IMG/VR virus record: IMGVR_UViG_3300035180_001680
DNA: 64,000 nt
DNA from: a virus
Lineage: Duplodnaviria > Caudoviricetes
Reading direction: 5' to 3' (one strand)
Shown here: positions 3,328-60,839 of the stretch, in pieces
Position numbering within the stretch: position 1 is the stretch's first letter
Layout of the letters: every line of letters starts with the position of its first letter
Position numbers and translations under genes: made by a program
The notes under the pieces: generated by a model
Told to the model about the DNA's origin: nothing
What the model saw: the letters and a program-made list of their open reading frames with translations, nothing else
The model's database searches: none

Positions 3328-4056
3328 ATGAGCCTCTCTGCGGAACAAAAACAATTGGTAATTCGAACCGTTGCCCATTTCACAGAAATGGGCAACAAGA
3401 AATTCGGTATCAACATGGCTGTTCCTACAACTCTTTTTAATAAGAGAGGAACTACTGCTGGTGAAGCCTCTTATAGTACACACACAGTCAATTTCAATGC
3501 TGATATGTGTGCTCAAAACTTCGATGAGTTTATCAACCAGGTTGTTCCACATGAGGTTGCCCACCTCGTTACACATGAAAAGTACAGCAAAGGTACCAAA
3601 CGATTCAACAACGTAAAAGCTCATGGACATGAATGGCGTCATGTTATGGTTACATTTGGCTTGTCACCTGACCGTTGTCATAAAATGGACGTCAGTGAGT
3701 TCAAACAACAACGAACCAAATATGAATATGTGTGCCCATCGTGTGGTCGCAGCTACAAAGTTGGTGGAAAGATTCACAACAATATTCAGGGTGGTAAAGT
3801 TTACGTCTGTAAATGCAAAGGTCGTTTATCACCAAATAGTGTGGTAGGTGTCCAAGCACCTACTGCCAAAAAGAAAGTGGAAACTACTACTGTCACCACT
3901 TCACGTGAAGGTTCCAAAAAGGATCGTGCAGAACGATTATACGCTGATTTCTCAACCAAAAGCCGTGAATTCATCATTACACTATTCATGAGTGAGTTGG
4001 ACATGACCAAGGCAGGTGCGTCCACTTACTACGCAAATTGTAAGAAGAAGTTTTAA
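3328..4056 (+). CDS. SprT-like zinc metalloprotease with C-terminal repeated helical domain
   Basis: PHEVAH zinc motif, HGHEWRHVM, YxCxxC, plus C-terminal MTKAGASTYYANCKK. Confidence 0.85.
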   Translation: MSLSAEQKQLVIRTVAHFTEMGNKKFGINMAVPTTLFNKRGTTAGEASYSTHTVNFNADMCAQNFDEFINQVVPHEVAHLVTHEKYSKGTKRFNNVKAHGHEWRHVMVTFGLSPDRCHKMDVSEFKQQRTKYEYVCPSCGRSYKVGGKIHNNIQGGKVYVCKCKGRLSPNSVVGVQAPTAKKKVETTTVTTSREGSKKDRAERLYADFSTKSREFIITLFMSELDMTKAGASTYYANCKKKF

Positions 4057-24706: not shown

Positions 24707-25400
24707 TCCTAAAACAATTATCGTGTCATATCCAAATGCAGGAAGAACTTGGCTCAAGCAAATGACGGATATGCTAGATACGGGTATTATGTATTCTCAC
24801 CAAGGATCCCAACACCGTAACCAACTAACTGCCAGCGAAATTATTCAGTTTCTTCAACAATACCCCGATCGATTTGTAGATAGCAAAATCATACTTCTAC
24901 ACCGTGATATTAAAGACCATCTGGTATCAAATTATTTTCAAACAATATATCGTGTTGGTATCAAACTTGCTTTGTCCGAATTTCTCCGTCATCCTTCTCA
25001 CGGCGTTGAGAAATTAGTCCGTTTTAATTTGTTTTGGAAACAGTTTTCAGGAGCCGAAAAGATTGGAACGGTAAAGTATGATACAATGCGGTTGAATCCT
25101 TCAGAATACTTAGTTCAACTTATCCACTTTTTTGATATACCTATTGATGAAACTAGGATTCCTGAGGTAGTTGACTATTGTTCGTTTGAAAGAATGAAAG
25201 ATAGAGAAACAAAGAGAGAAGGTTGGCAGTACTACTATCAGTACACTACACTTGATAATCCGGAATCATTCAAGTGTCGCAGGGGTAAAGTTGGAGGATA
25301 CGTCGATTATTTATCACCAGAAGATATACAATACTGTGATGCTATCACAGAACAATACAATTATACTGGACTGATGAATGACGATACCATTGGTAATTGA
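24696..25400 (+). CDS. sulfotransferase family protein
   Basis: PAPS-binding loop SYPNAGRTWL, ILLHRDIKD, C-terminal RRGKVGGY. Confidence 0.85.
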   Translation: MLDNPKTIIVSYPNAGRTWLKQMTDMLDTGIMYSHQGSQHRNQLTASEIIQFLQQYPDRFVDSKIILLHRDIKDHLVSNYFQTIYRVGIKLALSEFLRHPSHGVEKLVRFNLFWKQFSGAEKIGTVKYDTMRLNPSEYLVQLIHFFDIPIDETRIPEVVDYCSFERMKDRETKREGWQYYYQYTTLDNPESFKCRRGKVGGYVDYLSPEDIQYCDAITEQYNYTGLMNDDTIGN

Positions 25401-26325
25401 AAGGGCAGTTGTTGAAATTAATGGCGGATGTAACTATAAATGTCAGATGTGTCCTCAATCAATCGGACGAGAAAAACAATTCCTCAAAACGATCCCACTT
25501 ACTGAGTTTGAGAGGGTCGTTGCAGAGTTGTCACAATATGGTCTCAAACTTGTCAATCTTGAAGGCTCAGGTGAACCAACACTACAAAATAACCTTGATG
25601 AATATATCAAGGTAGTTACAAAATACGGGGCTAAACCATTTATATACACTAATGGGTTCCGGATGAAAGGTGATTTGATGAAACGGTGTGTTGATGCCGG
25701 ACTCGCATTTTGTCGGTTCTCTGTTATTGGATACAGTAGAGAGAAATACCGTGAATGGATGAAGGCAGATAACTTTGAAATAATCGTTGAGAACGCTGGG
25801 GCAATGAATGAATATGCTCAGGGTTCTACAACAGTCGCTTCATATCATCTCATCCTAGGGTCCGATACCGATTATGAAATTGACCAATATGTAACAAACT
25901 TCATAACTCCTGCACGGACCCAGGCAGAGATATGGAAAATGCACAATTGGTCTGGAGTCTATGACAATCCAACTAAGCGTATGGGCAACAGAAAAACTTG
26001 TGGCAGGCCCTTTGCTCCTGAAATAACAATCCGTGCCGGCGGCCCTAATAAACTATCAGTTGCACCATGTTGCCAGACACTCGGTCAAGACACCATCGCG
26101 GTTCTTGGAAATCTAACAACTCAAACTGTTGAACAAATATGGAATGGTCAACCATACGAACAACTTAGACAAGCACATAGTGAAAAAATGTTTGATAGTA
26201 TTCCCTATTGCAGTAAGTGTGACTTTCTGTATGATGACCAATCTGTTCTCGTTTATTCAAACACAAATACTAAATTATTCACTATGAACGGAACCACATT
26301 CTCTCTTGATGACTTCAGAAACTAA
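25378..26325 (+). CDS. radical SAM/SPASM protein
   Basis: CNYKCQMC motif, GSGEPTL, C-terminal C...CC...LGNL...IWN...CSKC. Confidence 0.9.
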   Translation: MTIPLVIERAVVEINGGCNYKCQMCPQSIGREKQFLKTIPLTEFERVVAELSQYGLKLVNLEGSGEPTLQNNLDEYIKVVTKYGAKPFIYTNGFRMKGDLMKRCVDAGLAFCRFSVIGYSREKYREWMKADNFEIIVENAGAMNEYAQGSTTVASYHLILGSDTDYEIDQYVTNFITPARTQAEIWKMHNWSGVYDNPTKRMGNRKTCGRPFAPEITIRAGGPNKLSVAPCCQTLGQDTIAVLGNLTTQTVEQIWNGQPYEQLRQAHSEKMFDSIPYCSKCDFLYDDQSVLVYSNTNTKLFTMNGTTFSLDDFRN

Positions 26326-26357: not shown

Positions 26358-27380
26358 TCACCCAACAAAGTGTTCGACGATAAACCAATGGTCTTCAAAC
26401 ATGTTTTCACCCTGCAATGCTCCCAAGGGAACCCACATTGCTTTTTCAGCGTCATCATCACCCTTAACCTTTGGTAGTGGACCTGGTGGTAATTCTATGA
26501 AAAAAGCATGAGAAATAGTTCTACCTCGCAAACTTCGGTTAGGGTCATCAAACACTTTCATACCTTTAATGTTTCCCCGAAGTACAGGTATTGGAACTTT
26601 AATTTTTGTTTCTTCACGTAGTTCTCTCAACATTGCATCTTCTAAACGTTCGTTTTGGTTAATGAACCCACCCGGAAGTGCCAACAAACCTTTTCCTGGA
26701 GATGAACGACGTTTAATCAACAAAACGTGTCCTGACTGAACAACGACAGCATCTGTGGTAACGAATGTCGGAGGATATGGAGCTGGTAACCAAGCTTTGT
26801 GATATTTTTTGATATATTCGTAGTCTTCCGAAAGTATAGTAAATTCAGGTGTTGACTTAAATAATTCAAGTTTTGCATAAACTGGCTCGGGAACGAGTGC
26901 TTGAAGGAATTTAAGATTTTTGCCCTCAAAGTAAAGTTCACGAAGATCAGTTGCATTAACATCTTCGTTTAATTCATGTTCCACTGGACTCCACTGTGGG
27001 AACATCTTAAGGTAATACGAACTTTCGTCTTTATCATATCCGATGATTGCAATCTTTGGACGGTCTAACCAAAACTCTCCAAGCATAGCCTCACTAACAG
27101 CTTCTTGGACTGCAGTAGTCCACTTTTGGTCGCTTGGTTGGTCGTTGACTTTGGTAATTTTGATTCGGTCTAAATTTCCACCAAAATCCTGACTTATAAT
27201 CATTGCTGCACGCTCTGAAGCAGTCCAAGGATTTTTTGGAGTTCGAGACGAATTTGCGCTACCAATAATAACAATTAGTTTGGTAGCAATTGACAAAGCT
27301 GTTTCAAATACTTGTTTGTGTCCAATGTGGAATGGTTGAAACCGTCCAATAAACACAGCATAATCGTACTGTTTTTGCAT
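26358..27380 (-). CDS. nadM: bifunctional NMN adenylyltransferase / NUDIX ADP-ribose pyrophosphatase
   Basis: FIGRFQPFHIGH and NUDIX box GGFINQNERLEDAMLRELREET; start MQKQY after GGAG. Confidence 0.92.
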   Translation of the reverse strand: MQKQYDYAVFIGRFQPFHIGHKQVFETALSIATKLIVIIGSANSSRTPKNPWTASERAAMIISQDFGGNLDRIKITKVNDQPSDQKWTTAVQEAVSEAMLGEFWLDRPKIAIIGYDKDESSYYLKMFPQWSPVEHELNEDVNATDLRELYFEGKNLKFLQALVPEPVYAKLELFKSTPEFTILSEDYEYIKKYHKAWLPAPYPPTFVTTDAVVVQSGHVLLIKRRSSPGKGLLALPGGFINQNERLEDAMLRELREETKIKVPIPVLRGNIKGMKVFDDPNRSLRGRTISHAFFIELPPGPLPKVKGDDDAEKAMWVPLGALQGENMFEDHWFIVEHFVG

Positions 27381-27503
27381 AGAAAACTCCTTTCTATATG
27401 TTGAGCATCTCTGTCTTTCAGAGATGTTTATATTTATACAACAGTTTACTGTTGACGTCAACTAATTTTACTATATACTAAAGATTAATTTAAAGAAGAC
27501 GAT

Positions 27504-29838: not shown

Positions 29839-31299
29839 ATGTTGGAACTTGTAAAACCATTTAATTTCATTCTTGCTGTCGATTCGTATAAAGCTGGTCA
29901 CTATCTTGAACTTCCTCCGGAAACTGAATACACTTATTCAGCAATTGTTCCACGTAAATCAAGTAGTTACGCTACAGAAATTGTTGCGATGGGTCAAACA
30001 TTCGTAGCTAACATTCTGGCTAAGGTTCGCATTACGATGGATATGATCGATGAAGCAGAAATTGAAATCACTGAACAGGGGTATCGTTTTAACCGTCGGG
30101 ATTGGGAGATGATTGTTCAAGAGTTTGACGGTCGCCTTCCAATTGCAATGTATGCAGTTGAGGAAGGGCGAGTAGTTAAACCTCAAACTCCTGTAATGGG
30201 GTTGGTTAACACCCATCCACGGTTTGCTTGGCTTCCTGCTTATGTTGAAAGTTGGGTTCAAGGAACCGTGTGGAAGATGTCCACTGTTGCATCGATCTGC
30301 CGCCGTGCACGACAAATTTTTAAAGATCGTATGGAACGAACAGGTTCCAATATGGCGATGTTAGATTACAAACTTCACAATTTCGGTGACCGAGCAGCTG
30401 GTTCTCCAGAAGAAGCTGTGGTTATTGCTGGTATTGCACATGCTACATCTTTTAGTGGTAGTGACAGTCTACGAACCAATAGTTATATTAAAAAACTATA
30501 TCGTACATCAAAGGCGTATTTGTCTTCTGTTGAAGCGTTTGAACACAGTACAATTTGTGCAAACTCTAATGCAGAAACAAAAGATGACTTCGGGGCTGCA
30601 GTTGTAGCTGTGGAACGCTTGAAAGATGTGGTCAATACTGCCAAAAACGGAATTGGTATTCCTGTGGTAAGTGTGGTCATTGACACATACGATGATGAAC
30701 GGTTTGTTGGTGAGTACCTTGGAACAATTCTCAAAGACGAGATTGTCAATAGTGGTGGAATGATGGTTGTGCGTCCTGACAGTGGAGATCCAACCGTCCA
30801 ACCCGGAATCATCGGAAATATATTGGCAGAAAAATTTGGTTATACTGTAAACGAGGCTGGATACAAAGTTCTTTCTCCGACAGTTGGTGTTCTTCAAGGT
30901 GATGGTATTCGAATCAGTACTCTAGAGAGTGTGATCGACGGATGGATCGCCGCTGGTTTCAGTGTTGATAACTTTCTCACTGGAATGGGAAGTGGAACCA
31001 CGAACGACTGCCAACGCGATGACTTCAGTTGGAGTATGAAGGCTATTGCAAATCAGGTGAATGGAACTTGGCATCGATTACTCAAAGATCCGAAAACTGA
31101 CTCTGGTAAAAAATCTCTTTCGGGTTTGATTCGTTGTCGTGAAAACGAGAAGGGTGAATTGGAAGTGTTTGATGCTCTAATCGAAGGTATTCACAGGTTT
31201 GAACATTCAGAGCCAGGTTGGAGACTTTGGTCGAGGGACGGATATCAGACGTTCAGTCAAAGTTTTGATGAGGTCCGAGCACGTGCTCAGGTTGATTAA
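29839..31299 (+). CDS. nadV: nicotinamide phosphoribosyltransferase (NAMPT)
   Basis: DSYKAGH, LHNFGDR, FSGSDS, FEHS, VRPDSGDP, QGDGI, KDPKTDSGKKS. Confidence 0.9.
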   Translation: MLELVKPFNFILAVDSYKAGHYLELPPETEYTYSAIVPRKSSSYATEIVAMGQTFVANILAKVRITMDMIDEAEIEITEQGYRFNRRDWEMIVQEFDGRLPIAMYAVEEGRVVKPQTPVMGLVNTHPRFAWLPAYVESWVQGTVWKMSTVASICRRARQIFKDRMERTGSNMAMLDYKLHNFGDRAAGSPEEAVVIAGIAHATSFSGSDSLRTNSYIKKLYRTSKAYLSSVEAFEHSTICANSNAETKDDFGAAVVAVERLKDVVNTAKNGIGIPVVSVVIDTYDDERFVGEYLGTILKDEIVNSGGMMVVRPDSGDPTVQPGIIGNILAEKFGYTVNEAGYKVLSPTVGVLQGDGIRISTLESVIDGWIAAGFSVDNFLTGMGSGTTNDCQRDDFSWSMKAIANQVNGTWHRLLKDPKTDSGKKSLSGLIRCRENEKGELEVFDALIEGIHRFEHSEPGWRLWSRDGYQTFSQSFDEVRARAQVD

Positions 31300-33025: not shown

Positions 33026-35548
33026 ATGAAAGCACAGATAGTAATTGGGGCAAATTTCGGAGACGAAGGGAAAGGTGGCACAGTTGATTATCTTGCTTCC
33101 CAAGTTGATAATACGATTGTTGTTCGGTTTAATGGAGGCTCTCAGGCAGGACATTGTCAAACTGGAGATACTTTAATCACAACTCAGTTTGGACTTAAAT
33201 ATATTAAAGATGTTGTGGGAAATATTACTAACAGCGATGTAAGTTTTCCGCTAATTAATATGAACGGAGATATTGAACACACGAGTTGGCTGTTCACCGA
33301 ACACTCAAAACAAGTAAACCGAATAACCCTTCAAAATGGAGTAGTACTTAAAGGGACTCATGCACACAAATACTATGTTTGGAATGGGAATACTGCTCAA
33401 CTTGAGTGGGTTAAAATAGGAGATTTAAACCCAAATGTCCACCAATTTATAGTTCCAAGATATTTCGACCAATATTTGGGTGTTATTCCTAACATTCAGT
33501 ACGTTCAATCAGAAACTGATCATGTTCACAATAAACGAAAGATTGATGTTGATATTATCGATCTTGAATTTTTAGCTTTTTTAACTGGAATTATTAATGG
33601 AGATGGACATTATGCTTCTCATGGAAGCCGAATTTCGATCCAATGTCACATTTCTCAACAGGACACAATTGATTATGTTGTTTCTGCGTTGACACTCATG
33701 AACATTCCTGTAAAAACACAGTCCCATCATTCGAGTGACCAATGTATTACTATTGCGTTTGAGAGTAGTGACCTTATTAACATTTTACGAGACCAATTGG
33801 GGGTTGCAATTACAACTGGTGTTAACAAGTGTACCCCAAAGTTTGTATTACAGGGTACCAGAGGTATAATTCGTAGTTATATACGAGGTTTGTTTGACGC
33901 AGACGGAACTATTAAATTTCATAAACAAAAAACAACCACATATGGTCAAATTGGGTTTTCTAACATATCTTGGGAACTGGTGTCAGAGGTCCAACAATTG
34001 CTGTATTTATTTGGAATTCACTCAAAAGTTATAACAAATAAATTAAATAAAAAGCGGTCAAATTGTCAACGATCGTATGATTTAATTATTGCATCATATG
34101 ATGCTATTGAATTGTTTGCACAAAACATAGGATTCCAGTCTGATATTAAAAACAATAAAGTGGTTGAGTTGTTGGCGTATAAACAAAACGCAAATAGTAA
34201 TTGTAACACCAAAGGATATGTACTTAAAGTCCCCCCAAATATCAAAAAGGCAATATATAAACAACTAAATTGTGTATGTCATGATAGTGAAGGAATCCGA
34301 ACTGGGTTTGTGGTCAACGAAAAGATTGAAAATTTTGAAAATATTGTAAACGTAGCAACGAACTATCATATAATCAATATTGAATCTGTTGACATGAATT
34401 TTAGTATCGAACAGGTATATGATGTTACGATGCCTATAACACATAGTTATATTGCCAATGGATGTATATCTCATAACACAGTAGAAACTCCCGAAGGCCT
34501 TCGTCATGTGTTCCATCATTTTGGATCAGGGACATTAATTGGAAAACCGACATATCTGTCAAGGTTTTTTGTCGTGGACCCAGTTGCTTTCTATTCTGAG
34601 CATAATTCTTTTAATCATAAGGGAATCAAGCCAAAAGTATTTGTTGATGTGAATGCCTATCTTGTAACTCCATTTGATGTAGCAATCAATCAAACTGTTG
34701 AACGCGCTCGTGGAGAACGTAAACATGGAAGTTGTGGGTTTGGAATCAATGAAACTGTTGAGCGCAATACGACTCGAGCATTTCCTGGGTTTGGTACAAC
34801 TGTTGCTGATATTCTTAATCCAGACGAACTTCGTAAGAAATTAAAACAAATTCGAGATGATTATACACAAAGCCGCCTTGAACAACTTGGGGTTGCATGT
34901 GGTGCTCTTGATGAGTTTTATATGTTTGTTGAAGCAATCGAATGGTTCATTGATCGGTGTATGTATATGCTGGAAAACATAACCACAGTTACCAACCCGG
35001 AGTTCCTACACAACTACGATACGGTTGTTTTTGAAGGTGCGCAGGGATTGTTGCTTGATGAATTTCACCACTGGTTTCCTCATGTAACTCGGTCAAGGAC
35101 AGGTGTGTTCAACGCTTGTGAAATTTTGAAAGAGATTGGAGTTCATGAAGCCGAAGTGTTCTATATCACTCGGTCGTACCTGACAAGACACGGAGCAGGG
35201 CCCTTGCCGTTTGAAGTAGATGGACCAATCTATGAAGGAATTATTGATAATACGAACGTTCCCAATGAACACCAAGGAACGTTGCGGTATGCACCACTGA
35301 ACTTTGATTTGTTGGAAGAAAGTATCATCAATGATTTGGAAACAGTGGCAGGTGTTAGATTGAGTCCGAAACTTGTTGTTACGTGCATGAACCAACTTCC
35401 TGAAAAAGTTAAGTATGTAGAAGACGGTGAAGTGGTCACTGGATGTAAATTTGATTTGATTTACAACCTTTCGTCTTTTGGTAAAAAATTTGATTCGGTG
35501 CTGTTGTCGTATAGTCCAACCAGGAATTTAATGTCCAGATTGGTGTAA
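33026..35548 (+). CDS. purA: divergent adenylosuccinate synthetase-family protein, intein-containing
   Basis: GDEGKG, GGSQAGH|T, EGAQG, TRHGAGPL; spliced product about 399 aa. Confidence 0.85.
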   Translation: MKAQIVIGANFGDEGKGGTVDYLASQVDNTIVVRFNGGSQAGHCQTGDTLITTQFGLKYIKDVVGNITNSDVSFPLINMNGDIEHTSWLFTEHSKQVNRITLQNGVVLKGTHAHKYYVWNGNTAQLEWVKIGDLNPNVHQFIVPRYFDQYLGVIPNIQYVQSETDHVHNKRKIDVDIIDLEFLAFLTGIINGDGHYASHGSRISIQCHISQQDTIDYVVSALTLMNIPVKTQSHHSSDQCITIAFESSDLINILRDQLGVAITTGVNKCTPKFVLQGTRGIIRSYIRGLFDADGTIKFHKQKTTTYGQIGFSNISWELVSEVQQLLYLFGIHSKVITNKLNKKRSNCQRSYDLIIASYDAIELFAQNIGFQSDIKNNKVVELLAYKQNANSNCNTKGYVLKVPPNIKKAIYKQLNCVCHDSEGIRTGFVVNEKIENFENIVNVATNYHIINIESVDMNFSIEQVYDVTMPITHSYIANGCISHNTVETPEGLRHVFHHFGSGTLIGKPTYLSRFFVVDPVAFYSEHNSFNHKGIKPKVFVDVNAYLVTPFDVAINQTVERARGERKHGSCGFGINETVERNTTRAFPGFGTTVADILNPDELRKKLKQIRDDYTQSRLEQLGVACGALDEFYMFVEAIEWFIDRCMYMLENITTVTNPEFLHNYDTVVFEGAQGLLLDEFHHWFPHVTRSRTGVFNACEILKEIGVHEAEVFYITRSYLTRHGAGPLPFEVDGPIYEGIIDNTNVPNEHQGTLRYAPLNFDLLEESIINDLETVAGVRLSPKLVVTCMNQLPEKVKYVEDGEVVTGCKFDLIYNLSSFGKKFDSVLLSYSPTRNLMSRLV
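33155..34477 (+). mobile_element. intein with LAGLIDADG homing endonuclease (441 aa)
   Basis: Starts CQTGDT, ends ANGCISHN followed by Thr; internal FLTGIINGDG and YIRGLFDADG. Confidence 0.92.
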
Positions 35549-35871: not shown

Positions 35872-35931
35872 TGTAAAAATACTACATCATCTTCTGAGCT
35901 TAAATACCCTTTTACCCACTAAAATTGCATG

Positions 35932-35960
35932 TTGACATAGATATTTTAATAATATATACT
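35932..35960 (+). promoter_or_regulatory. sigma70 promoter of the riboswitch operon
   Basis: TTGACA-17-TATACT. Confidence 0.75.
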
Positions 35961-36012
35961 TGTGTCAGATGTTAGAAATTTAGTTCTGACATTGAACTAA
36001 AAAGAAAAAGAA

Positions 36013-36104
36013 AGTTCTTGTAAAGGGCAAACCAATTCGAAAGATTGGGACGCAAAGTAACCCGGCCTAAAGAGAAATCCATGGCAGCGGAACTACCTGG
36101 AATC
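36013..36104 (+). ncRNA. c-di-GMP-I (GEMM) riboswitch
   Basis: AGGGCAAACCAATTCGAAAGATTGGGACGCAAAG...CCGGCCTAA...GGCAGCGG...TACC matches the GEMM-I consensus with GAAA tetraloop; G at the Vc2 G20 position. Confidence 0.9.
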
Positions 36105-36143
36105 TTCTTAGATGTAACACTAATCTAATTGGAGATCCAAAAA

Positions 36144-36902
36144 ATGAAAAAAACCCTTATTGCTCTTGCTCTTGCTTCAATCTCTACTGCTGCCTTTGCT
36201 ACTGGTTCCGACGCTACTGTTTATGCAAATAGTCAAACGTCTACCTATGCCCAAGCTGGTAATGGTGGTACTTCCCATTCAACTGCTGGCAACTTTGCAG
36301 TTGGCGCTGGCGACACCGATTCTAATGTTCGTCGTGGGATGTTGTCCGTTACCGTTCCCAACTGTAACGTTCCAACCACAGCTACTGTGTTTGGTGATGT
36401 CACTACAGTAACTGGTGAAGCATCCACTATGGGTGGCTCGTTTGCTAAGAACGTTTCTACAGGAAACGGTACTGGTGAAGCCCACGCACTTGGTGTAGCT
36501 GTTTCCGACGTAGCTAAAACACGTAATGGTGTTGGTGGAACTGCAAGCGCGTTGACCAAAACTTGGGCAAATGCCGGAACTGATCAAAGTCACTCGTCTT
36601 TTGCTTCACAAAGCGCCAACTTCGAAGCACAGGGTGCAACTGGTTTGTTGATTGTTACCCACGACGAGACCGCCAGCATCCATCACCACACCGTCACTAT
36701 TCCTCACGTTGACTACGTTGGAGTTGGTGCTGCATCCACTGGTACCTCTGACGTTCCTGCTGCACATCAGGTGTATAGCTTGAGCAACGGTGGTTGCCAC
36801 GGTGGTTGCCAAACTGGTCCAGGTAATGATGATGCTGGTAGCTACACCAATGCGAACGCAACTACACTGACTAACGTTACCTACGGCAACATTCCTCAGT
36901 AA
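36144..36902 (+). CDS. secreted G/A/S/T-rich protein
   Basis: Signal peptide MKKTLIALALASISTAAFA; GGAG RBS directly after the riboswitch. Confidence 0.85.
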   Translation: MKKTLIALALASISTAAFATGSDATVYANSQTSTYAQAGNGGTSHSTAGNFAVGAGDTDSNVRRGMLSVTVPNCNVPTTATVFGDVTTVTGEASTMGGSFAKNVSTGNGTGEAHALGVAVSDVAKTRNGVGGTASALTKTWANAGTDQSHSSFASQSANFEAQGATGLLIVTHDETASIHHHTVTIPHVDYVGVGAASTGTSDVPAAHQVYSLSNGGCHGGCQTGPGNDDAGSYTNANATTLTNVTYGNIPQ

Positions 36903-36976
36903 TAGTTAAGTTGACTGAATTACTATGCGTGGTAACCACGCATAGTACAACAATTCCATCAAAAAGGAAAAAGTAA

Positions 36977-37534
36977 ATGAAAAAAATTGCTCTTATTATC
37001 GTGTTGACAATGTCGATGCCGGTGTTTGCTGCTGGTACAAGTTCGAGTTCTACGTCTGATTCGTATGCGTCGAGTGATGGTAACTCCCAAACCATTATCT
37101 ACAACAACCCGGCCATTCCAACTACAACCACACAGAATGTTAACTACTCTGGTGGAACAACATCTGATGTGAACACAACAGTCAACGGTACCACGACTCA
37201 GAACATTGTCCAGTCAGGAACAACCGGTCAAAACGTGAACTACAGTGGAACACAGACCATTAAAAACGTGCCTTCTGTTGGCGGTCCTGCTCTAACAAGC
37301 TCGAACGACACTTGTATGGGTTCTACTTCTGGTGGTATCGGTGTTGCTGGCTTCGGTTTCAGTCTCGGTTCTACGTGGACTGACAAGAACTGCAAAATGT
37401 TGAAGAACTCTCGTGAACTTTGGAACATGGGTATGCGTGCTGCTTCTATGGCTCGCATGTGCATGGACAGTGAGAATCGCGAGGCGTTGGAACTGACTGG
37501 TTTTACTTGCCCTACCAAAAAAGAAGACAAGTAA
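36977..37534 (+). CDS. secreted protein with T/N-rich repeats and Cys-containing C-terminal domain
   Basis: Signal peptide; QNVNYSG x2; DTCMGS...DKNC...RMC. Confidence 0.85.
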   Translation: MKKIALIIVLTMSMPVFAAGTSSSSTSDSYASSDGNSQTIIYNNPAIPTTTTQNVNYSGGTTSDVNTTVNGTTTQNIVQSGTTGQNVNYSGTQTIKNVPSVGGPALTSSNDTCMGSTSGGIGVAGFGFSLGSTWTDKNCKMLKNSRELWNMGMRAASMARMCMDSENREALELTGFTCPTKKEDK

Positions 37535-37561
37535 TCCATAACCCAACGAAAGGAGAGTAAC

Positions 37562-38002
37562 ATGAAAGTTTTAATTACGACACTACTTGCAGCGGCTTCG
37601 TTCTCTGCCCTGGCAGGAGATTTGGTAATAGAACGTACGCCTCTTGGTTCCGGAACTCCAGGTCTTGAAGGTAGAGAAGCAACATATCTCATGCCAGATG
37701 GAATGCTGTTTGCTCCTCAATATCTTCCTAGCTTTCCAACAGCTGCGGTCATCTGGCCGAGGGTTGTTGAAGTTCAGTGTGAGTTGAAAGATAAAGTCAC
37801 AGTTTGTGACGGATACCAATGGACGCCTAAATTGGGACGTGGTGAATATATTTTCATCGTTCCAGTTAACAAACCAGTTCCTCCTGCTCCGATTATCGTA
37901 ACAAACACGATAGAACGAGTGGTGACAGTTCCGCTACCTGCTCAACCAGTAGTGGCACCTGAGACGCTGCCTCCAGCGCCCGACAAGAAAATTGGTGGTT
38001 AA
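37562..38002 (+). CDS. secreted protein with Pro-rich tail
   Basis: Signal peptide MKVLITTLLAAASFSALA; AAGGAG RBS. Confidence 0.8.
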   Translation: MKVLITTLLAAASFSALAGDLVIERTPLGSGTPGLEGREATYLMPDGMLFAPQYLPSFPTAAVIWPRVVEVQCELKDKVTVCDGYQWTPKLGRGEYIFIVPVNKPVPPAPIIVTNTIERVVTVPLPAQPVVAPETLPPAPDKKIGG

Positions 38003-38004
38003 TG

Positions 38005-38030
38005 AAAATGGGGACTTCGGTCCCCATTTT
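38005..38030 (+). terminator. terminator of the riboswitch operon
   Basis: AAAATGGGGAC ttcg GTCCCCATTTT. Confidence 0.85.
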
Positions 38031-38058
38031 TTATTCTAATACTATAAACTATACACAT

Positions 38059-38415
38059 ATGATTACTGTAAGCATTTTAGTGGCAACAATTTGTTTCTCT
38101 GTTAACAACATAGAGGAATGCCACCCTATATTAATTGGTAAAAATACTCCAATCGGAACGTTTCCAATCACACATATGACTACAAAGAAACCAGGGTATG
38201 GTGGAGATATTTTAGTATTCAAAGAAACATCAACCACCCTTTATGCTATTCATCGTCTCTGGAAATTTAACCCTAAGCAAAAACGTGAGCAACGTTTAGC
38301 AACAGCTACCCCAAAAGATAATATAATCACAAGTGGTTGTATTAACGTTGAGTCTAAAGTGTACGAACGATTAACAGCGTGTTGTTCAAAAGAACCACTT
38401 GAAATCAAGAAGTAA
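38059..38415 (+). CDS. YkuD/L,D-transpeptidase-like protein, copy 1
   Basis: YAIHR...ITSGCINV. Confidence 0.65.
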   Translation: MITVSILVATICFSVNNIEECHPILIGKNTPIGTFPITHMTTKKPGYGGDILVFKETSTTLYAIHRLWKFNPKQKREQRLATATPKDNIITSGCINVESKVYERLTACCSKEPLEIKK

Positions 38416-38445
38416 ATCGTGTATAATATCCCCATGGAGGACTTT

Positions 38446-38838
38446 ATGAAATCGATTTTGTTTGCTTTACCCCTGTTTGTTTTTGGTTGTAGCTCGTCGC
38501 CCCCACCAAAACCTGAAAATACTGAATGTATCCAAGTTGCAAAGTACGCTCGAACAGTTGCTACACTTCGTGATATGAATGTTTCTGAATCAGACATTGA
38601 TTCATTTTCGCAAGTTCCTATTGCACTCACATTTCCGTATCGAAAGGTGAGAAGTGAAGTATATGCTACAAAAACTGAAACCCCTGCGGATGCGTTTACT
38701 AAGTTTTATCACAGATGTGATGAGGCTGGATATTCAACACTTTTACAAGCACTCCAAGAAGATGAACGAAGAAGAATTGCAGAAGAGAAGAAAAAAAGCA
38801 GCGGAGGAAGAAGCAACACGTCAACAACGAATTATTAA
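38446..38838 (+). CDS. lipoprotein, copy 1
   Basis: Lipobox VFGC; paralogous to 40726-41184. Confidence 0.7.
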   Translation: MKSILFALPLFVFGCSSSPPPKPENTECIQVAKYARTVATLRDMNVSESDIDSFSQVPIALTFPYRKVRSEVYATKTETPADAFTKFYHRCDEAGYSTLLQALQEDERRRIAEEKKKSSGGRSNTSTTNY

Positions 38839-38905
38839 TGAGATGGTTGAAAAAATGAATAAGGCCAACCCATATATTACTCAACGATGAAATTAGCCGC
38901 TGCCT

Positions 38906-39544
38906 ATGGGGCACACAATCGGAATTAACACCGGCAGGTTAGGGTTTTTGAATGATTTCTCTTCTGTTCGTGAATTTTTAGTGAACAGTTTAGAAAAACT
39001 ATTCACTAAACCACTTGTTGATGTGGATGAACGATTGCTTCTTTCTGTTTCTATCGAGACCAAGACTGAAATTGACTATAATATTGCCGTATCTGTCAAT
39101 GAGTTTTCGATCGCTCATCTCGAGTCAGATACAATTCTGAGTTTTGATATGTTCATTGATGATCGTTTTGCCGGAAGTCACCGAGCGAACAGTGTGATCG
39201 TAGCGACCCCAACTGGATCTACGGCATACTCTTTGTCTGCTGGAGGGGCGATACTACATCCGTATATGGATGCAATCGAAATCGTTCCTGTTGCTTCTCT
39301 GCGAATGGCTTCTCGGCCGATTGCCGTTAGTGGAAAATCTGTTGTCAGAATCGTTGCTAATAGTAACGAACGGCAAGGTCCCATCATCATTCGATCTGAT
39401 GGACAAAAAGTGCTGACCTGGAATAATAGTCGTGAAGCAATCGAAATTGTTGTAAAATGTACTGAAAATAAAGCGAAAATGCTTCACTCGAACGATTGGA
39501 ACTTTTTCGATGTTCTGTCTACAAAAATGGGTTGGTTGACTTAG
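38906..39544 (+). pseudogene. NAD kinase copy 1, N-terminally truncated and frameshifted
   Basis: GINTGRLGFL, VNEFSI, ATPTGSTAYSLSAGG present; GGDGT motif absent; frameshift near 38913. Confidence 0.75.
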
Positions 39545-40308: not shown

Positions 40309-40583
40309 AAGATAAAGACAAGATGTTGAAGTTTTCGAAACTTTCAACACCAAAAGATCCGGGTTACGGTGGAGACGTTTTGCAGTTTTACGAGGATTCA
40401 AAAAAAGTATACGCAATTCATCGACTTTGGCTTTTGAGACCATCTGAACATCGTGCTGCTCGTATATTATCAGAGAATCCCAAACAACACATGATAACAC
40501 ATGGTTGTATTAATGTGGAACCTGAAGTTTATGATAAGTTGGTAAATTGTTGTTTAACTGATAAATTGGAAATAAGAAAATGA
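40245..40583 (+). pseudogene. chimera of NADAR N-terminal fragment and YkuD-like C-terminus
   Basis: In frame: GIVWTSSEHAYQAAK (NADAR motif)...LSTPK|DPGYGGD...ITHGCINV. Confidence 0.7.
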
Positions 40584-40725
40584 AGATTCTAGTATTTTTT
40601 GGGGAATTTGTAACTGTGGCACTAGTTGGTATAGTAATTGGTATAGCAATTGGTATAGCAATTGGTATAGTAATCGGGACCGGTTTAATCCATTATGCTA
40701 AACAGATATATAAGTTCATTTTCTA

Positions 40726-41184
40726 ATGAAGAAATTTATAGCAGTATGTTTTGTATTAACTCTTTCAGCTTGTAGTGAAATCCCAACACAGCAACCGGTA
40801 GTTGATACACAGTGCCAAGTTGTAGCTTCATATGCAAGAACAGTTGATACGTTAAAAAGAATGAATGTGGGAATAGAAGACTTAGACCAATATTCTGTTA
40901 AATCGAGTGTGTTAACTTTTCCTTATAAAGCAGTAAGACTTAATGTTTATTCTAATAATTACAAAACACCAACGGAAGCGTTTACTGTATTATATACTAA
41001 GTGTTTGGATGGGGGATACAACAATCTATTAGTTACTTTAAGAGAGGTCAGCAAACAACAAATTATCGTTGAACAAACAAACAGTGAGAAACTTGAAGAT
41101 TTAGCACCCAGTTGGAACCAACAGTTGTCTCCTTTTGCTGGTCAACTTAAAATGTCAACCAAATTAAGATACGCCCCTCAATAA
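40726..41184 (+). CDS. lipoprotein, copy 2
   Basis: Lipobox LSAC; CQVVASYARTV...LTFPY parallels copy 1. Confidence 0.7.
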   Translation: MKKFIAVCFVLTLSACSEIPTQQPVVDTQCQVVASYARTVDTLKRMNVGIEDLDQYSVKSSVLTFPYKAVRLNVYSNNYKTPTEAFTVLYTKCLDGGYNNLLVTLREVSKQQIIVEQTNSEKLEDLAPSWNQQLSPFAGQLKMSTKLRYAPQ

Positions 41185-41313
41185 AATAAAACCCCTTTTC
41201 GGGGTTTTATTTTTGGGGCGTTCCGTTCCCCGAACTACACAACGGTCCTAAGTGTTGTGTTTATTAAATATTTATAGTATTATGTCAAATATTAAAATCG
41301 GTTGGAGATTTAC

Positions 41314-42144
41314 ATGAAGTTTGATCGAGTGGTTATTATCCAAAAACTGGATAATAAAGAAGATGTTATTGTAAAACACATTGTATCGTCTATGATTCAT
41401 TTAGTTGAAAAATACAATATTCCTGTTGTGTTAGATTCAAATTCTACTTATAATTCAAACACATTGTTTATAGCAGTAGGTGGGGATGGAACAATGCTAT
41501 ACACCCTAAAAAAAGCAGCTGCTGTTGGGGCTCTTGCTATTGGTGTAAATGCTGGGAAAGTTGGTTTTTTGACAGATGTTTTTCGTGAACAATTATTTAC
41601 AACACTGGCTCCATTATTGTCTGATCAATCATACGTTCCACCAATTCTTCTACGAATGATGTTAAAAACTTCTGTTTGTGGGTCTGAATTTATTTCGATG
41701 AATGAATTAACAATTGCCCATTCAGAGTCAGATACTATTTTAAACTTTGGGTTATTTATAGATGGTGAATTTGCTGGAAGTCACCGTGCAAACAGTGTGG
41801 TAATATCTACACCAACGGGTTCAACAGCATATGCATTATCAGCAGGTGGCGCAATTTTACATCCTTCTATGGAAGCTATTGAAATTGTCCCAGTTGCCTC
41901 TTTGAAAATGGCTTCCCGACCTATTGTTGTGAGTGGACACTCCACGATTCGAATTGAAGCAAAATACTCACAAGGGTTACCGGTTGTGATTCGTTCCGAC
42001 GGACAAAAAGCCTTTGTCCAATCGAGTGATACAAAAGAAGTAGAGATTACAGTTAAACAATCAGATCAAAAGGCTAAAGCTATTTTAAGTAAAGATTGGA
42101 ACTTTTTTGATGTGTTGTCGACGAAAATGGGTTGGTTATCTTAA
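41314..42144 (+). CDS. nadK: NAD kinase, full length
   Basis: GGDGT, NAGKVGFL, MNELTI, STPTGSTAYALSAGG, DG motif. Confidence 0.9.
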   Translation: MKFDRVVIIQKLDNKEDVIVKHIVSSMIHLVEKYNIPVVLDSNSTYNSNTLFIAVGGDGTMLYTLKKAAAVGALAIGVNAGKVGFLTDVFREQLFTTLAPLLSDQSYVPPILLRMMLKTSVCGSEFISMNELTIAHSESDTILNFGLFIDGEFAGSHRANSVVISTPTGSTAYALSAGGAILHPSMEAIEIVPVASLKMASRPIVVSGHSTIRIEAKYSQGLPVVIRSDGQKAFVQSSDTKEVEITVKQSDQKAKAILSKDWNFFDVLSTKMGWLS

Positions 42145-44181: not shown

Positions 44182-44646
44182 ATGAAACATTTAAAGAAAG
44201 ATTTAACCACCGTTGAATGTGGGTTAATTATACATGGGGTAAATTGTAGGGGATCATTTGGGTCAGGAATTGCAGGTGCAATCCGTCGTAAGTGGCCTTC
44301 TGTATACCAATCATATATGAATGCATACCACAATTCCAGAGAGAATAACACACAGTTACTTGGTGATGTTGATTTTGCTCTTGTTCACGACGAACCTCTA
44401 TTATATGTTGCAAATTTGTTTAGTCAAGAATATTATGGAAATGACGGGAAGACATACGCGAATCCAATGGCAATTAAACTTGGTCTAACGAAATGTTTTA
44501 TGTTCGCTGACAAAAACGACCTTACAATATACTCTGGAAAGGTTGGATGTGGATTGGGCGGGTTACGTTGGGCAAATGACGTTGAACCGATTTTTGAACA
44601 ATTGGAAACCCAGTTTTCTAAATCAGTATATATTTGTGATATCTAA
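44182..44646 (+). CDS. macro domain protein (T4 Tk.4-like)
   Basis: IIHGVNCRGSFGSGIAGAIRRKWP, VANLFSQ, GCGLGGL.W. Confidence 0.88.
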   Translation: MKHLKKDLTTVECGLIIHGVNCRGSFGSGIAGAIRRKWPSVYQSYMNAYHNSRENNTQLLGDVDFALVHDEPLLYVANLFSQEYYGNDGKTYANPMAIKLGLTKCFMFADKNDLTIYSGKVGCGLGGLRWANDVEPIFEQLETQFSKSVYICDI

Positions 44647-57374: not shown

Positions 57375-59297
57375 ATGGAAAATATCTTTGACTTGTATCG
57401 CTCACAATATAAAGAACACTCAACTGAAACTATGAGTATTCAAGAGTATCTTGAATTATGCAAAAAAGAGCCGTTAACATATGCTACAGCTGGAGAGCGT
57501 ATGTTACAAGCAATAGGGGAACCAAAAATGGTAAACACGAAAGACGATCCCCGCCTTAGCCGTATTTTTATGAATCGTGTCATTAAAGTTTATCCTGCTT
57601 TTGAAGATTTTTATGGTATTGAAGATTCTGTTGAGCAGATAGTTTCATTTTTTACACACGCTGCTCAAGGTCTAGAAGAGAAGAAACAAATCCTCTATCT
57701 GCTTGGTCCTGTCGGAAGTTCCAAGTCTAGTATTGCAGAACGTTTGAAAGAATTAATGGAAAAAATTCCATTTTATGCGATTGAAGGTTCTCCAATCTTT
57801 GAATCACCTCTTGGATTATTCAACGTTACAGAACACGGAAAGTTTTTAGAAGATAATTATGGTATTGATCGCCGTTATCTTGGACACATTATGTCTCCTT
57901 GGGCCGCAAAACGCTTACGTGAATTTGATGGAGATATTTCCAAATTCCGAGTTGTTAAACGTTGGCCTTCTCGTCTTAACCAAGTTGCAATTACAAAAAC
58001 AGAACCTGGTGATGAAAACAACCAAGATATTTCGTCTCTCGTTGGTAAAGTAGATATTCGAAAATTGGAAGAATACTCTCAAGATGATCCAGATGCATAC
58101 AGTTATAGTGGTGGTCTGTGTTTAGCCAATCAGGGGATTCTTGAATTCGTTGAAATGTTCAAAGCACCAATCAAAATTTTACATCCTCTGTTAACAGCGA
58201 CACAAGAAGGCAATTATAATGGTGTTGAGGGTGCAGCTATTCCATTTAGTGGTGTAATTCTTGCACATAGTAACGAAAGTGAATGGACTGCTTTCCGAAA
58301 CAATAAAACGAATGAAGCATTTTTGGATCGTGTTTATATTGTTAAAGTTCCATATTGCTTGCGTGTATCAGATGAAACCCAAATTTACCGCAAGCTTCTT
58401 CGAGGTAGTGCTTTGTATGCATCACCATGTGCGCCTGGAACACTGGAAATGATGGCTCGTTTCGCTGTATTGACACGATTGAAAGAACCTGGTAATTCTG
58501 CTTTGTATTCAAAGATGCGTGTATATGATGGAGAAAATCTGAAAGATAGTGATCCTAAGGCGAAACCCATTCAAGAGTATCACGACGAAGCAGGTGTAGA
58601 TGAGGGCATGAGTGGATTATCAACTCGATTTGCATATAAGATCCTTTCGAGGGTGTTCAATTATGATTCTCAAGAAGTTGCTGCGAATCCAGTTCATTTA
58701 ATGTATGTTCTCGAAAAACAGATCGAACAAGAACAATTTCCACCAGACACAGAAGAAAGATATATTGATTTCATTAAAAGTGTTCTGGCTCCAAAATATG
58801 CAGAATATTTGGACAAAGAAATACGGACTGCATACTTTGAAAATGCAGATGAATATGGTCAAAATCTATTCGAGCGGTACTTGACATATGCGGATGCTTG
58901 GATTCAAGATGTTGATTTTCGAGATCCTGATACAGGTGAAATGTACGAACGGAGTGCTTTGAATTCAGAATTGGAAAAAGTTGAGAAACCAAGCGGAATC
59001 GCCAATCCAAAAGATTTTCGCAGTGAAGTTGTCAGTTACGTTCTTCGTCAACGAGCTGCTAATGGTGGAAAGACTCCTGACTGGAAATCATATGAGAAGA
59101 TTAAAGATGTAATCGAAAAACGAATCTTCGCTTCAACAGAAGAATTATTGCCCGTAATAACCTTTACTTCAAAGGGAAGTTCTGAAGATCAGAAAAAACA
59201 TAATGGGTTTGTTCAGCGTATGGTTGAAAAAGGATACACTGAAAAACAAGTAAGATTATTGGTGGAGTGGTTCCTTAGATGGCGCAAAAATAATTAA
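57375..59297 (+). CDS. prkA: PrkA/YeaG family AAA+ serine kinase-like protein
   Basis: LLGPVGSSKSS, EPGDENNQDIS.LVG, LEFVEMFKAP, NEAFLDR. Confidence 0.93.
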   Translation: MENIFDLYRSQYKEHSTETMSIQEYLELCKKEPLTYATAGERMLQAIGEPKMVNTKDDPRLSRIFMNRVIKVYPAFEDFYGIEDSVEQIVSFFTHAAQGLEEKKQILYLLGPVGSSKSSIAERLKELMEKIPFYAIEGSPIFESPLGLFNVTEHGKFLEDNYGIDRRYLGHIMSPWAAKRLREFDGDISKFRVVKRWPSRLNQVAITKTEPGDENNQDISSLVGKVDIRKLEEYSQDDPDAYSYSGGLCLANQGILEFVEMFKAPIKILHPLLTATQEGNYNGVEGAAIPFSGVILAHSNESEWTAFRNNKTNEAFLDRVYIVKVPYCLRVSDETQIYRKLLRGSALYASPCAPGTLEMMARFAVLTRLKEPGNSALYSKMRVYDGENLKDSDPKAKPIQEYHDEAGVDEGMSGLSTRFAYKILSRVFNYDSQEVAANPVHLMYVLEKQIEQEQFPPDTEERYIDFIKSVLAPKYAEYLDKEIRTAYFENADEYGQNLFERYLTYADAWIQDVDFRDPDTGEMYERSALNSELEKVEKPSGIANPKDFRSEVVSYVLRQRAANGGKTPDWKSYEKIKDVIEKRIFASTEELLPVITFTSKGSSEDQKKHNGFVQRMVEKGYTEKQVRLLVEWFLRWRKNN

Positions 59298-59519
59298 TCT
59301 TTATAATCGAGGAGTTAGAGAGGAACCATTGGTTCCTCTCTATTGTTCATACTTACACTTCTTTTTGTTATTTTCTGTCGCTGTTAATATTTGCAGATTC
59401 GATAAACAACGTAAACCACACACAGTATCACTGTTCACACTTCATACTTCAAAAGTAACATCTGTTGTAAGGGGGCAATTTTTGATATATAATAGAAACT
59501 ATTATTCACGGAGTACAGA

Positions 59520-60839
59520 ATGAGTTTTCAAATTTTGGACCGAAGAAAGAATGGTAAAAATAAAAGCTCTGCAAATCGTCAGCGTTTTATCCGGCGAGTA
59601 AAAAGTAGAGTTCGGGAAGCTGTTAAGAAATCTATCACATCGGGAAACATTCGTGATATTATTTCACCTGGCGACCAGAATGTTAATATCCCAACAAAAG
59701 ATATTAATGAACCTCATTTTACTCATTCGTCTGATTCAGGTGAACTTGAACGTATCTTACCTGGAAATAAAAAATATGTTCCAGGAGACAGAATCCCAAA
59801 ACCACCTCCTCAAGATGGTAAGGGTGGGAATGGTTCCGGTGGAGGTGGTGAACAGAACGATGACTTTGAGTTCGCTATTACTCACGACGAATACATGGAT
59901 GTGTTCTTTGAAGATTTGGAGCTTCCCGATTTAGTTAAAAAGGGGCTTGCTCAAACAGAAGAAATAAAGGTAAAACGAGCTGGGTTTGCTGTTGATGGTA
60001 ATCCAAGTAAATTAAACTACGTACGTTCTCTTCGACAGTCAGTTGGACGGCGGGCTGCTTTACGTACTCCAAAAAAACGAAAACTACGAGAGCTAGAAAC
60101 AGAACTTTCGGAACTTTATGAATTCATTGAAAATAATAAAGATGAAAATGGAAATCTAATAACGGAGTGTGAAGAACAACAACTTCGGATTATTCAACTT
60201 GAACATGAAATAGCTGTTCTTAAAAAGAAAATTAAGGCTGTTCCATTTATTGATTCAATTGATTTGCGTTATAACAGATTTGAGATAGTTCGAACCCCAA
60301 TTACTCAAGCTGTGATGTTTTGTGTCATGGACGTATCTGGTAGTATGGGTGAATATGAAAAAGATTTAGCAAAACGATTTTTCATGTTATTGTATTTATT
60401 TCTACACCGAAATTACAAATATGTGGATGTCGTATTTGTTAAACATCACACAGCAGCTTTTGAAGTAGACGAAGAAAACTTCTTTTATTCTCGTGAATCA
60501 GGCGGAACCATGGTTTCTTCCGCAACAACTCTCGTGAAAAACATAATTGAAGAACGATATGATCCATCGAAATGGAACATTTATGTGTGCCAAGCAAGTG
60601 ATGGAGATAACGATGTGGATGATTGTCAACAGGTTGTCGAAACGCTTATTAAAGATATTCTTCCTATGTCACAATATTATGCTTACGTCCAAGTTAATAA
60701 TCCTGATAACATCATGTCGCAGGTATACCAACATTACTTATTGGGGAAACATGAGAATTTTGCAATGGCTATAATTGAAGAACCAAGTGATATATATCCT
60801 GTTTTCCACAACCTATTCGAAAAGGACACATCCAAATGA
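59520..60839 (+). CDS. yeaH: YeaH/YhbH (DUF444) vWA-like protein
   Basis: KSSANRQRF, MDVSGSM, RESGGT, QASDGDN. Confidence 0.92.
   Translation: MSFQILDRRKNGKNKSSANRQRFIRRVKSRVREAVKKSITSGNIRDIISPGDQNVNIPTKDINEPHFTHSSDSGELERILPGNKKYVPGDRIPKPPPQDGKGGNGSGGGGEQNDDFEFAITHDEYMDVFFEDLELPDLVKKGLAQTEEIKVKRAGFAVDGNPSKLNYVRSLRQSVGRRAALRTPKKRKLRELETELSELYEFIENNKDENGNLITECEEQQLRIIQLEHEIAVLKKKIKAVPFIDSIDLRYNRFEIVRTPITQAVMFCVMDVSGSMGEYEKDLAKRFFMLLYLFLHRNYKYVDVVFVKHHTAAFEVDEENFFYSRESGGTMVSSATTLVKNIIEERYDPSKWNIYVCQASDGDNDVDDCQQVVETLIKDILPMSQYYAYVQVNNPDNIMSQVYQHYLLGKHENFAMAIIEEPSDIYPVFHNLFEKDTSK

Follow-up and report, generated by a model that had tools for sequence, protein, structure and literature searches.

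A c-di-GMP-I aptamer and putative translational ON switch in the leader of an exported-protein operon of a jumbo phage

Introduction

The closest described counterparts of the RNA analyzed here are Vc1 and Vc2 of Vibrio cholerae, in the gbpA and VC1722/tfoY leaders, which consist of two hairpins with a GAAA tetraloop and its receptor, sit in the 5' leader, and lack a terminator. In Vc2, c-di-GMP is contacted by G20, A47, and C92, and a universally conserved C-G pair joins the helices; Vc1 precedes the gene for GbpA, a secreted protein (PMC4744006). According to McCown et al. (2017, PMC5473149), phage genomes seldom contain riboswitches, and the phage examples of the c-di-GMP-I class given in that account are two, both in prophages of Clostridioides difficile (Sudarsan et al. 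2008, cited therein). We found no publication that reports a riboswitch from jumbo or huge phages, and the word riboswitch is absent from the two jumbo-phage reviews that we searched.

Here, we describe a c-di-GMP-I (GEMM-I) aptamer in a 64-kb stretch of phage DNA (hereafter, the window). The locus shares with Vc1 and Vc2 the two hairpins, the GAAA tetraloop and receptor, contacts of the G20/A47/C92 type, the 5' leader position, and the absence of a terminator, and it shares with Vc1 a downstream gene for a secreted protein (PMC4744006). It differs from both in being encoded by a giant phage rather than a bacterial chromosome, in preceding proteins without a known family, and in its platform—a predicted compact overlap of P1 and anti-Shine-Dalgarno (anti-SD) strands that ends 5 nt before the ATG. 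With the C. difficile prophage switches, as given in the cited account, it has in common a c-di-GMP-I aptamer on phage DNA; those phages are temperate and have a Firmicute host, whereas the window comes from a ~338-kb phage with T4-like features found in sediment or microbial mat. Because the RNA class is well known, what is new here concerns distribution and biology rather than mechanism. Our best explanation, to which we assign a probability of roughly 0.6, is that the leader of a three-gene operon for Sec-exported proteins in this phage contains a functional c-di-GMP-I ON riboswitch.

Results and Discussion

The Phage and Its Surroundings

What kind of virus carries this leader? The first-pass annotation had called it a jumbo phage, and the label holds: the protein of the first operon gene (gene 1) is on record on a 338,129-bp contig, and the window, with its genes packed on one strand, encodes a gp7-like baseplate/tail-fibre protein, virion proteins, and an NAD salvage set. 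T4-type TATAAATA motifs are enriched in the window (10 found versus 4.4 expected), and one lies just upstream of the tail-fibre gene. DNA runs containing the stretch are from sediment and microbial-mat metagenomes, and no RNA runs containing it are listed among the sequencing runs. Searches of 50,697 GenBank phage records with megablast and blastn returned no near relatives of the region; the nearest record compared is an IMG/VR fragment, G001 (36 kb, estimated 11% completeness).

A complete stress-kinase triad—PrkA (YeaG), DUF444 (YeaH), and SpoVR (YcgB)—occupies 57375-63094 (+). The nearest phage relatives of its genes are in ~635-kb uncultured phages and Ralstonia phage RsoM2USA, and its PrkA is 70-74% identical to homologues of Burkholderiales and other beta- and gammaproteobacteria, a weak hint of a beta- or gammaproteobacterial host. 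The SpoVR-like gene has weak, below-cut-off matches to an intein (Hint) and to LAGLIDADG near its N terminus. The NAD set comprises an NMN adenylyltransferase-NUDIX fusion, NAMPT, two NAD kinase genes (the first without an N-terminal domain), and a macro-domain protein, with its genes at 26358-27461 (-), 29839-31299, 38906-39544, 41302-42144, and 44182-44646. Among the virion genes, 25378-26325 (+) encodes a radical SAM/SPASM-domain enzyme. A gene at 33026-35548 (+) encodes an 840-aa adenylosuccinate-synthetase-like protein (Pfam Adenylsucc_synt) that contains an intein with a LAGLIDADG homing endonuclease; its best PHROG is the PurZ-type phrog_1211, and PurZ-like activity, if the enzyme has it, might let the phage make 2-aminoadenine DNA. 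In G001, a counterpart of the gene is missing from the interval that separates NAMPT from the riboswitch.

Promoter, Leader, and Operon

The features of the locus are listed in Table 1. A sigma-70 promoter had been proposed upstream of the aptamer, and the TTGACA-17-TATACT element is indeed there, matching the consensus at 11 of 12 positions and scoring highest in the region. Because the pattern TTGACA-N16-18-TANNNT is not enriched in the window (8 found versus 5.25 expected), we regard this promoter as plausible but unproven. The site is kept in G001 as TTGCCA. It is not a T4-type late TATAAATA motif, which suggests that it may be read by the unmodified host polymerase. Transcription is expected to start near 35967, so placed that the transcript would open with a predicted stem-loop that may stabilize the mRNA; the aptamer begins 56 nt downstream of the promoter and ends 44 nt upstream of the ATG of the signal-peptide gene.

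Table 1. Feature coordinates at the riboswitch locus, with identity to the nearest record (G001) by segment
Feature	Position	Strand	Details
Sigma-70-type promoter (plausible)	35932-35960	+	TTGACA (35932-35937), 17 nt, TATACT (35955-35960)
10-bp stem-loop at predicted transcript 5' end	35968-35993	+	MFE fold; identical in G001
A-rich spacer			Between 5' stem-loop and aptamer
P1, 5' strand	36008-36020	+	Inner 36014-36020, outer 36008-36012
Aptamer motif GGGCAAACC	36025-36033
First aptamer hairpin	36027-36053	+	GAAA tetraloop 36039-36042
Aptamer motif GACGCAAAG	36049-36057
Second aptamer hairpin	36056-36094	+	Receptor-like CCUAA (36066-36070) and CAUGG (36080-36084) either side of the distal stem
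Aptamer motif CCGGCCTAA	36062-36070
Shared strand: P1 3' strand and anti-SD strand	36097-36109	+	Anti-SD strand UGGAAUCUUC, 36098-36107
SD-sequestering hairpin, 15 bp (predicted)	36098-36139	+	-12.5 kcal/mol; present in unconstrained MFE folds
Shine-Dalgarno GGAG and start codon	36131-36146	+	GGAG 36131-36134, 9-nt spacer, ATG 36144-36146
Gene 1 (P0001, 252 aa)	36144-36902	+	Sec signal peptide, predicted cleavage after AFA
Stem-loop of 11 bp lacking a U-tract	36922-36946	+	Between genes 1 and 2
Gene 2 (185 aa)	36977-37534	+	Signal peptide, Ser/Thr/Asn-rich linker, Cys-containing C-terminal domain
Gene 3 (146 aa)	37562-38002	+	Signal peptide, Cys pair, Pro-rich tail
Intrinsic terminator, operon end	38005-38033	+	G+C-rich stem 38009-38015/38020-38026, UUCG loop, U-tract
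Variable segment	36186-37220	+	Mature gene 1, intergenic hairpin, N-terminal half of gene 2
Upstream gene versus G001			About 65% identity
Promoter, leader, signal peptide versus G001	35897-36190		About 98% identity
Mature gene 1 and first half of gene 2 versus G001	36190-37220		Unalignable
Downstream segment versus G001	37220 onward		99% identity

The secreted-protein operon that had been described downstream of the aptamer is confirmed as three genes, each beginning with a classical Sec-type signal peptide (predicted export), followed by a strong terminator; the terminator was found by direct reading and had not been listed by a simple terminator scanner. The stem-loop that separates genes 1 and 2 may serve in processing or stability. 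Genes 1 and 3 match nothing in Pfam, PHROGs, or NCBIfam; gene 2 has no Pfam or NCBIfam family, and the sole match of its conserved C-terminal domain is the unnamed phrog_20531. Protein atlas look-ups gave no usable functional lead for any of the three. The mature part of the gene-1 product is rich in Gly, Ser, Thr, and Ala, all-beta, and marked by a conserved Cys-x3-Cys, and a profile search of 1.84 billion representative proteins places it in a small, phage-only family of seven representative clusters. In its AF2 model (pLDDT 73), very long beta-hairpins follow one another in a meander, and structural searches found no convincing fold match. Likeness to pore-formers was limited to generic long beta-hairpins (TM 0.1-0.25) and likeness to outer-membrane barrels to fragments (best Z 5.1), and we assign no fold on either basis.

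Directly after the operon lies a tandem duplication of a three-gene block (38059-39544 and 40323-42144) encoding a small exported protein (phrog_38499), a lipoprotein, and an NAD kinase. The block's first two genes also follow the gene 1-3 module in a related metagenome contig, L036, and the first does so in the related phage contig L033. A reading of genes 38059-38415 and 40323-40583 as L,D-transpeptidases, from their GC(I/V)N motif, was dropped for want of Pfam support.

A Full-Length GEMM-I Aptamer with G at the Selectivity Position

Is the RNA a true member of its class? The first-pass annotation had called it a near-textbook GEMM-I aptamer and had named Infernal as the check. In a cmscan run (Rfam 15), RF01051 (c-di-GMP-I) matched 36016-36100 (+) with 64.2 bits (E 2.9e-10) against a gathering cut-off of 35 bits, covering model positions 1-87 of 87; it was the sole Rfam family above its gathering score in the whole 64-kb window. 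By the Rfam model, this is a bona fide GEMM-I aptamer. Standard base pairs are present for 19 of the 20 model pairs, the exception being A36059/A36091. The two hairpins adjoin each other; the first bears a GNRA tetraloop, the second contains a receptor-like internal loop, and the GAAA tetraloop and sequence motifs quoted in the annotation are in place (Table 1).

To locate the ligand site, we carried the Vc2 residues listed in PMC4744006 onto the window through the Rfam alignment, a mapping of our own. It proposes G36026 (G20), A36054 (A47), and C36096 (C92) as ligand contacts and C36051-G36087 as the interhelical pair. G occupies both positions (36025 and 36026) that immediately precede the opening GC of the first hairpin; thus, the G20 equivalent is G whichever numbering register is used, as had been claimed. 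We consider the RNA very probably a working sensor of c-di-GMP, which it would bind at this site.

Could the aptamer instead sense another cyclic dinucleotide during infection, such as 3',3'-cGAMP from a host CBASS? Geobacter GEMM-I variants bind 3',3'-cGAMP, CBASS produces signals such as 3',3'-cGAMP upon infection, and a phage would benefit from sensing them. However, cGAMP-selective GEMM-I RNAs have A at position 20, and this A-for-G substitution, the mark of GEMM-Ib, is absent: the position is G in the window, in G001, and in L036. The best-scoring clan model for the window aptamer is likewise c-di-GMP-I rather than one of its variants. The G at the G20 position favors c-di-GMP over 3',3'-cGAMP as the ligand, and we regard a cGAMP sensor as highly improbable.

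A Shared Strand Links P1 to the Ribosome-Binding Site

How might ligand binding be passed on to gene 1? The annotation had noted a hairpin, TTAGAT...ATCTAA, abutting GGAG. That hairpin exists (36108-36113 with 36123-36128, 2 nt before GGAG) but is merely the tip of a predicted 15-bp helix that sequesters the SD by pairing GGAG with CUUC (36104-36107). In folds without P1, the predicted probability that GGAG is unpaired is 0.00-0.03.

A P1 helix closing the three-way junction is also possible in the window, with 36014-36020 facing 36097-36103 and an outer part, 36008-36012, facing 36105-36109; all 11 proposed pairs (six inner, five outer) are standard. The 3' strand of P1 doubles as the 5' strand of the sequestering helix, so that the two pairings are mutually exclusive. 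The predicted fold with aptamer and sequestering helix has -26.3 kcal/mol, whereas enforcing the aptamer and inner P1 gives a best fold of -22.6 kcal/mol, in which outer P1 also forms; the ligand-free RNA would thus prefer the masked state by about 4 kcal/mol, a cost that tight c-di-GMP binding could readily cover. In this constrained fold, the anti-SD strand sits in P1 and the SD is left in a 4-bp mini-hairpin in which both G's of GGAG remain predicted paired, so that SD release is only partial in the model. It also counts against the switch reading that the outer P1 strand varies among population variants (G36010T and small insertions).

Inspection of the sequence and a terminator scan found no terminator-like U-tract 3' of the aptamer, and a transcription-terminator platform was rejected on that ground. 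Since the sole structured element 3' of the aptamer masks the SD, control at the level of translation, which the annotation had proposed, is the natural reading. Given that the switch works at all, the platform, at 36097-36139, is probably a translational ON switch: in the window and in L036 alike, the predicted overlap of P1 and anti-SD strands has the classic ON layout.

The opposite sign has to be weighed. A genuine c-di-GMP riboswitch could act as an OFF switch, with ligand stabilizing a fold in which an SD hairpin persists, or lowering mRNA stability, so that synthesis of the exported proteins would be confined to motile hosts, in which c-di-GMP is low. Published GEMM-I switches include both signs, with Cd1 as an OFF example (PMC4744006). 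In our folds, a state that combines inner P1 with an 11-bp hairpin covering GGAG is energetically near (-20.1 versus -22.6, about 2.5 kcal/mol worse), and the pairing of the SD G's in the mini-hairpin of the P1 state points the same way. Against this, the minimum-energy fold without ligand already hides the SD, no alternative "anti-sequestor" exists for the ligand to remove, and P1 and the base of the sequestering helix use identical nucleotides in both the window and L036. We therefore judge an OFF switch unlikely.

Under the preferred ON reading, the operon (36144-38002) would probably be transcribed early by host sigma-70 polymerase. In the absence of ligand, 36098-36107 would pair with the SD region in the 15-bp hairpin and block translation of gene 1. 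Upon binding of c-di-GMP, P1 (36008-36020 with 36097-36109) would form and take this strand from the sequestering helix, leaving the ribosome-binding site in the weak 4-bp mini-hairpin only, and translation could begin. The envelope or secreted proteins would thus be made mainly in high-c-di-GMP (sessile, biofilm) hosts.

Relatives With and Without the Riboswitch

How widely does the riboswitch accompany this gene module? Gene-1 homologues used to find further loci were 47-57% identical, and in related phage contigs we found the module three times with the riboswitch and four times without. G001 has the same leader in the same place, with an aptamer of 58.2 bits; one change, G36064A, creates an A-C mismatch in its second hairpin, and the G001-type allele that carries it is abundant. 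Its switch logic resembles that of the window, with the outer P1 pairs in a shifted register. In L036, a diverged relative, a GEMM-I aptamer (59.2 bits) lies directly before a 47%-identical gene-1 homologue.

In the L036 aptamer, two changes relative to the window are compensatory, C-G to U-A (36028/36052) and A-U to G-C (36035/36045), the A-A mismatch at 36059/36091 becomes U-A, the distal stem retains a GNRA loop (GUAA), and several one-sided changes are compatible and none disruptive; covariation was assessed on three sequences only (window, G001, and L036). The unconstrained MFE of the L036 core gives the same aptamer shape. AAGGAA lies within an AU-rich hairpin whose anti-SD strand overlaps the L036 P1 (GAAGAA with UUCUUC), and, when P1 is enforced, the predicted probability that the SD is unpaired rises from 0.01-0.2 to 0.3-0.8. 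By these predictions, L036 keeps the same switch logic in different letters, and a P1 analogous to that of the window and a mutually exclusive P1/SD-sequestering layout are predicted in all three sequences.

The other four loci (L033, L034, L119, and L120) have no riboswitch despite enough upstream sequence; their modules are preceded by plain promoters or by a terminator before the ribosome-binding site. In L033, an intrinsic terminator (3940-3985) stands directly against the ribosome-binding site of the gene-1 homologue, an arrangement suggesting that control of the module differs at this locus and depends on read-through. The order of genes 1, 2, and 3, then a homologue of 38059-38415, is kept in L033 and L036. 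The riboswitch was also absent at 13 of 13 other IMG/VR loci with gene-2 homologues. Present at some module loci and absent at others, the riboswitch is an optional regulatory element placed ahead of a conserved module of envelope proteins. Further searches were negative: metagenome contigs contained neither an exact copy of the 32-nt aptamer core nor a match to a gene-1 profile confined to the signal-peptide pattern, and IMG/VR had no match to a profile of the mature part of gene 1 and no relatives of the gene upstream of the riboswitch.

The four riboswitch-free loci of seven count against our best explanation, and they bear on a passenger reading, in which the aptamer and its leader were taken over from a host and no longer regulate anything, so that the operon is expressed constitutively. 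The module evidently works without a riboswitch at those loci, the second hairpin of G001 carries a mismatch, and mosaic recombination could explain the conserved leader. However, the contact and tertiary-motif positions are all intact, scores are far above the family cut-off in three lineages, and the compensatory changes of L036, with its re-invented P1/anti-SD overlap, argue for selection on both fold and switch. We give the passenger reading a slim chance.

GEMM-I aptamers also occur on other phage contigs. A strict GEMM-I core pattern retrieved 15 IMG/VR contigs, and Rfam confirmed 15 of 15. These differ from the window in gene cargo, and two (L015 and L016) score best as c-di-GMP-I-GGC. 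On several of them—for example, L016 (234-kb contig), L010, L011, L012, and L006—the aptamers precede genes with signal-peptide or lipoprotein starts. L016 (234,228 bp), likewise a jumbo-phage contig, also carries a Pistol ribozyme (160-229, 65 bits), with its c-di-GMP-I-GGC aptamer (1589-1667, 66 bits) ~1.4 kb downstream, before the signal-peptide gene. L007, L014, L004, L005, and L009 combine GEMM-I aptamers with pemK RNA or dinG RNA motifs, a combination suggestive of Firmicute prophages.

A Polymorphic Segment behind a Common Leader

Identity to G001 changes abruptly along the operon (Table 1): the variable segment exists as two unalignable alleles behind one common leader. The window and G001 gene-1 proteins are only 30% identical, below the identity of the window protein to homologues from unrelated samples. 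Both alleles circulate. In run X1, the window allele has a depth of ~48 and the G001 type ~6-10, and a contig from this run joins 36185 to 37156 via 985 other letters; in run X2, G001-type flanks reach a depth of ~155-200 and the window allele ~6. JGI sample 3300037010 contains both. This pattern suggests that cargo alleles are exchanged or that selection diversifies them, and the 98% identity of the leaders may stem from recent recombination rather than from selection alone.

A broader and more speculative proposal, to which we would give only a small chance, is that the riboswitch is one arm of a c-di-GMP circuit run by the phage. The host level would be read at entry, the fast-evolving exported envelope proteins would be deployed only in sessile or biofilm cells, and a later drop in c-di-GMP would shut the operon, while the leader and signal-peptide block would serve as a recombination handle for swaps of gene-1 alleles between co-circulating phages. 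The exported proteins might, for example, exclude rival phages or alter the envelope or matrix. Scanning the window with crude motifs, which could miss such genes, turned up neither GGDEF nor HD...GYP.

Implications

What would a c-di-GMP-I ON riboswitch mean for this phage? A riboswitch fronting a polymorphic segment points to an arms-race function of the cargo. The compact leader could be tested as a natural sensor part, and the locus offers a clean, testable case of a giant phage that would read a host lifestyle signal, with variable, predicted exported proteins as its cargo. If the ON reading is true, phages would read bacterial lifestyle—motile versus biofilm—directly via RNA.
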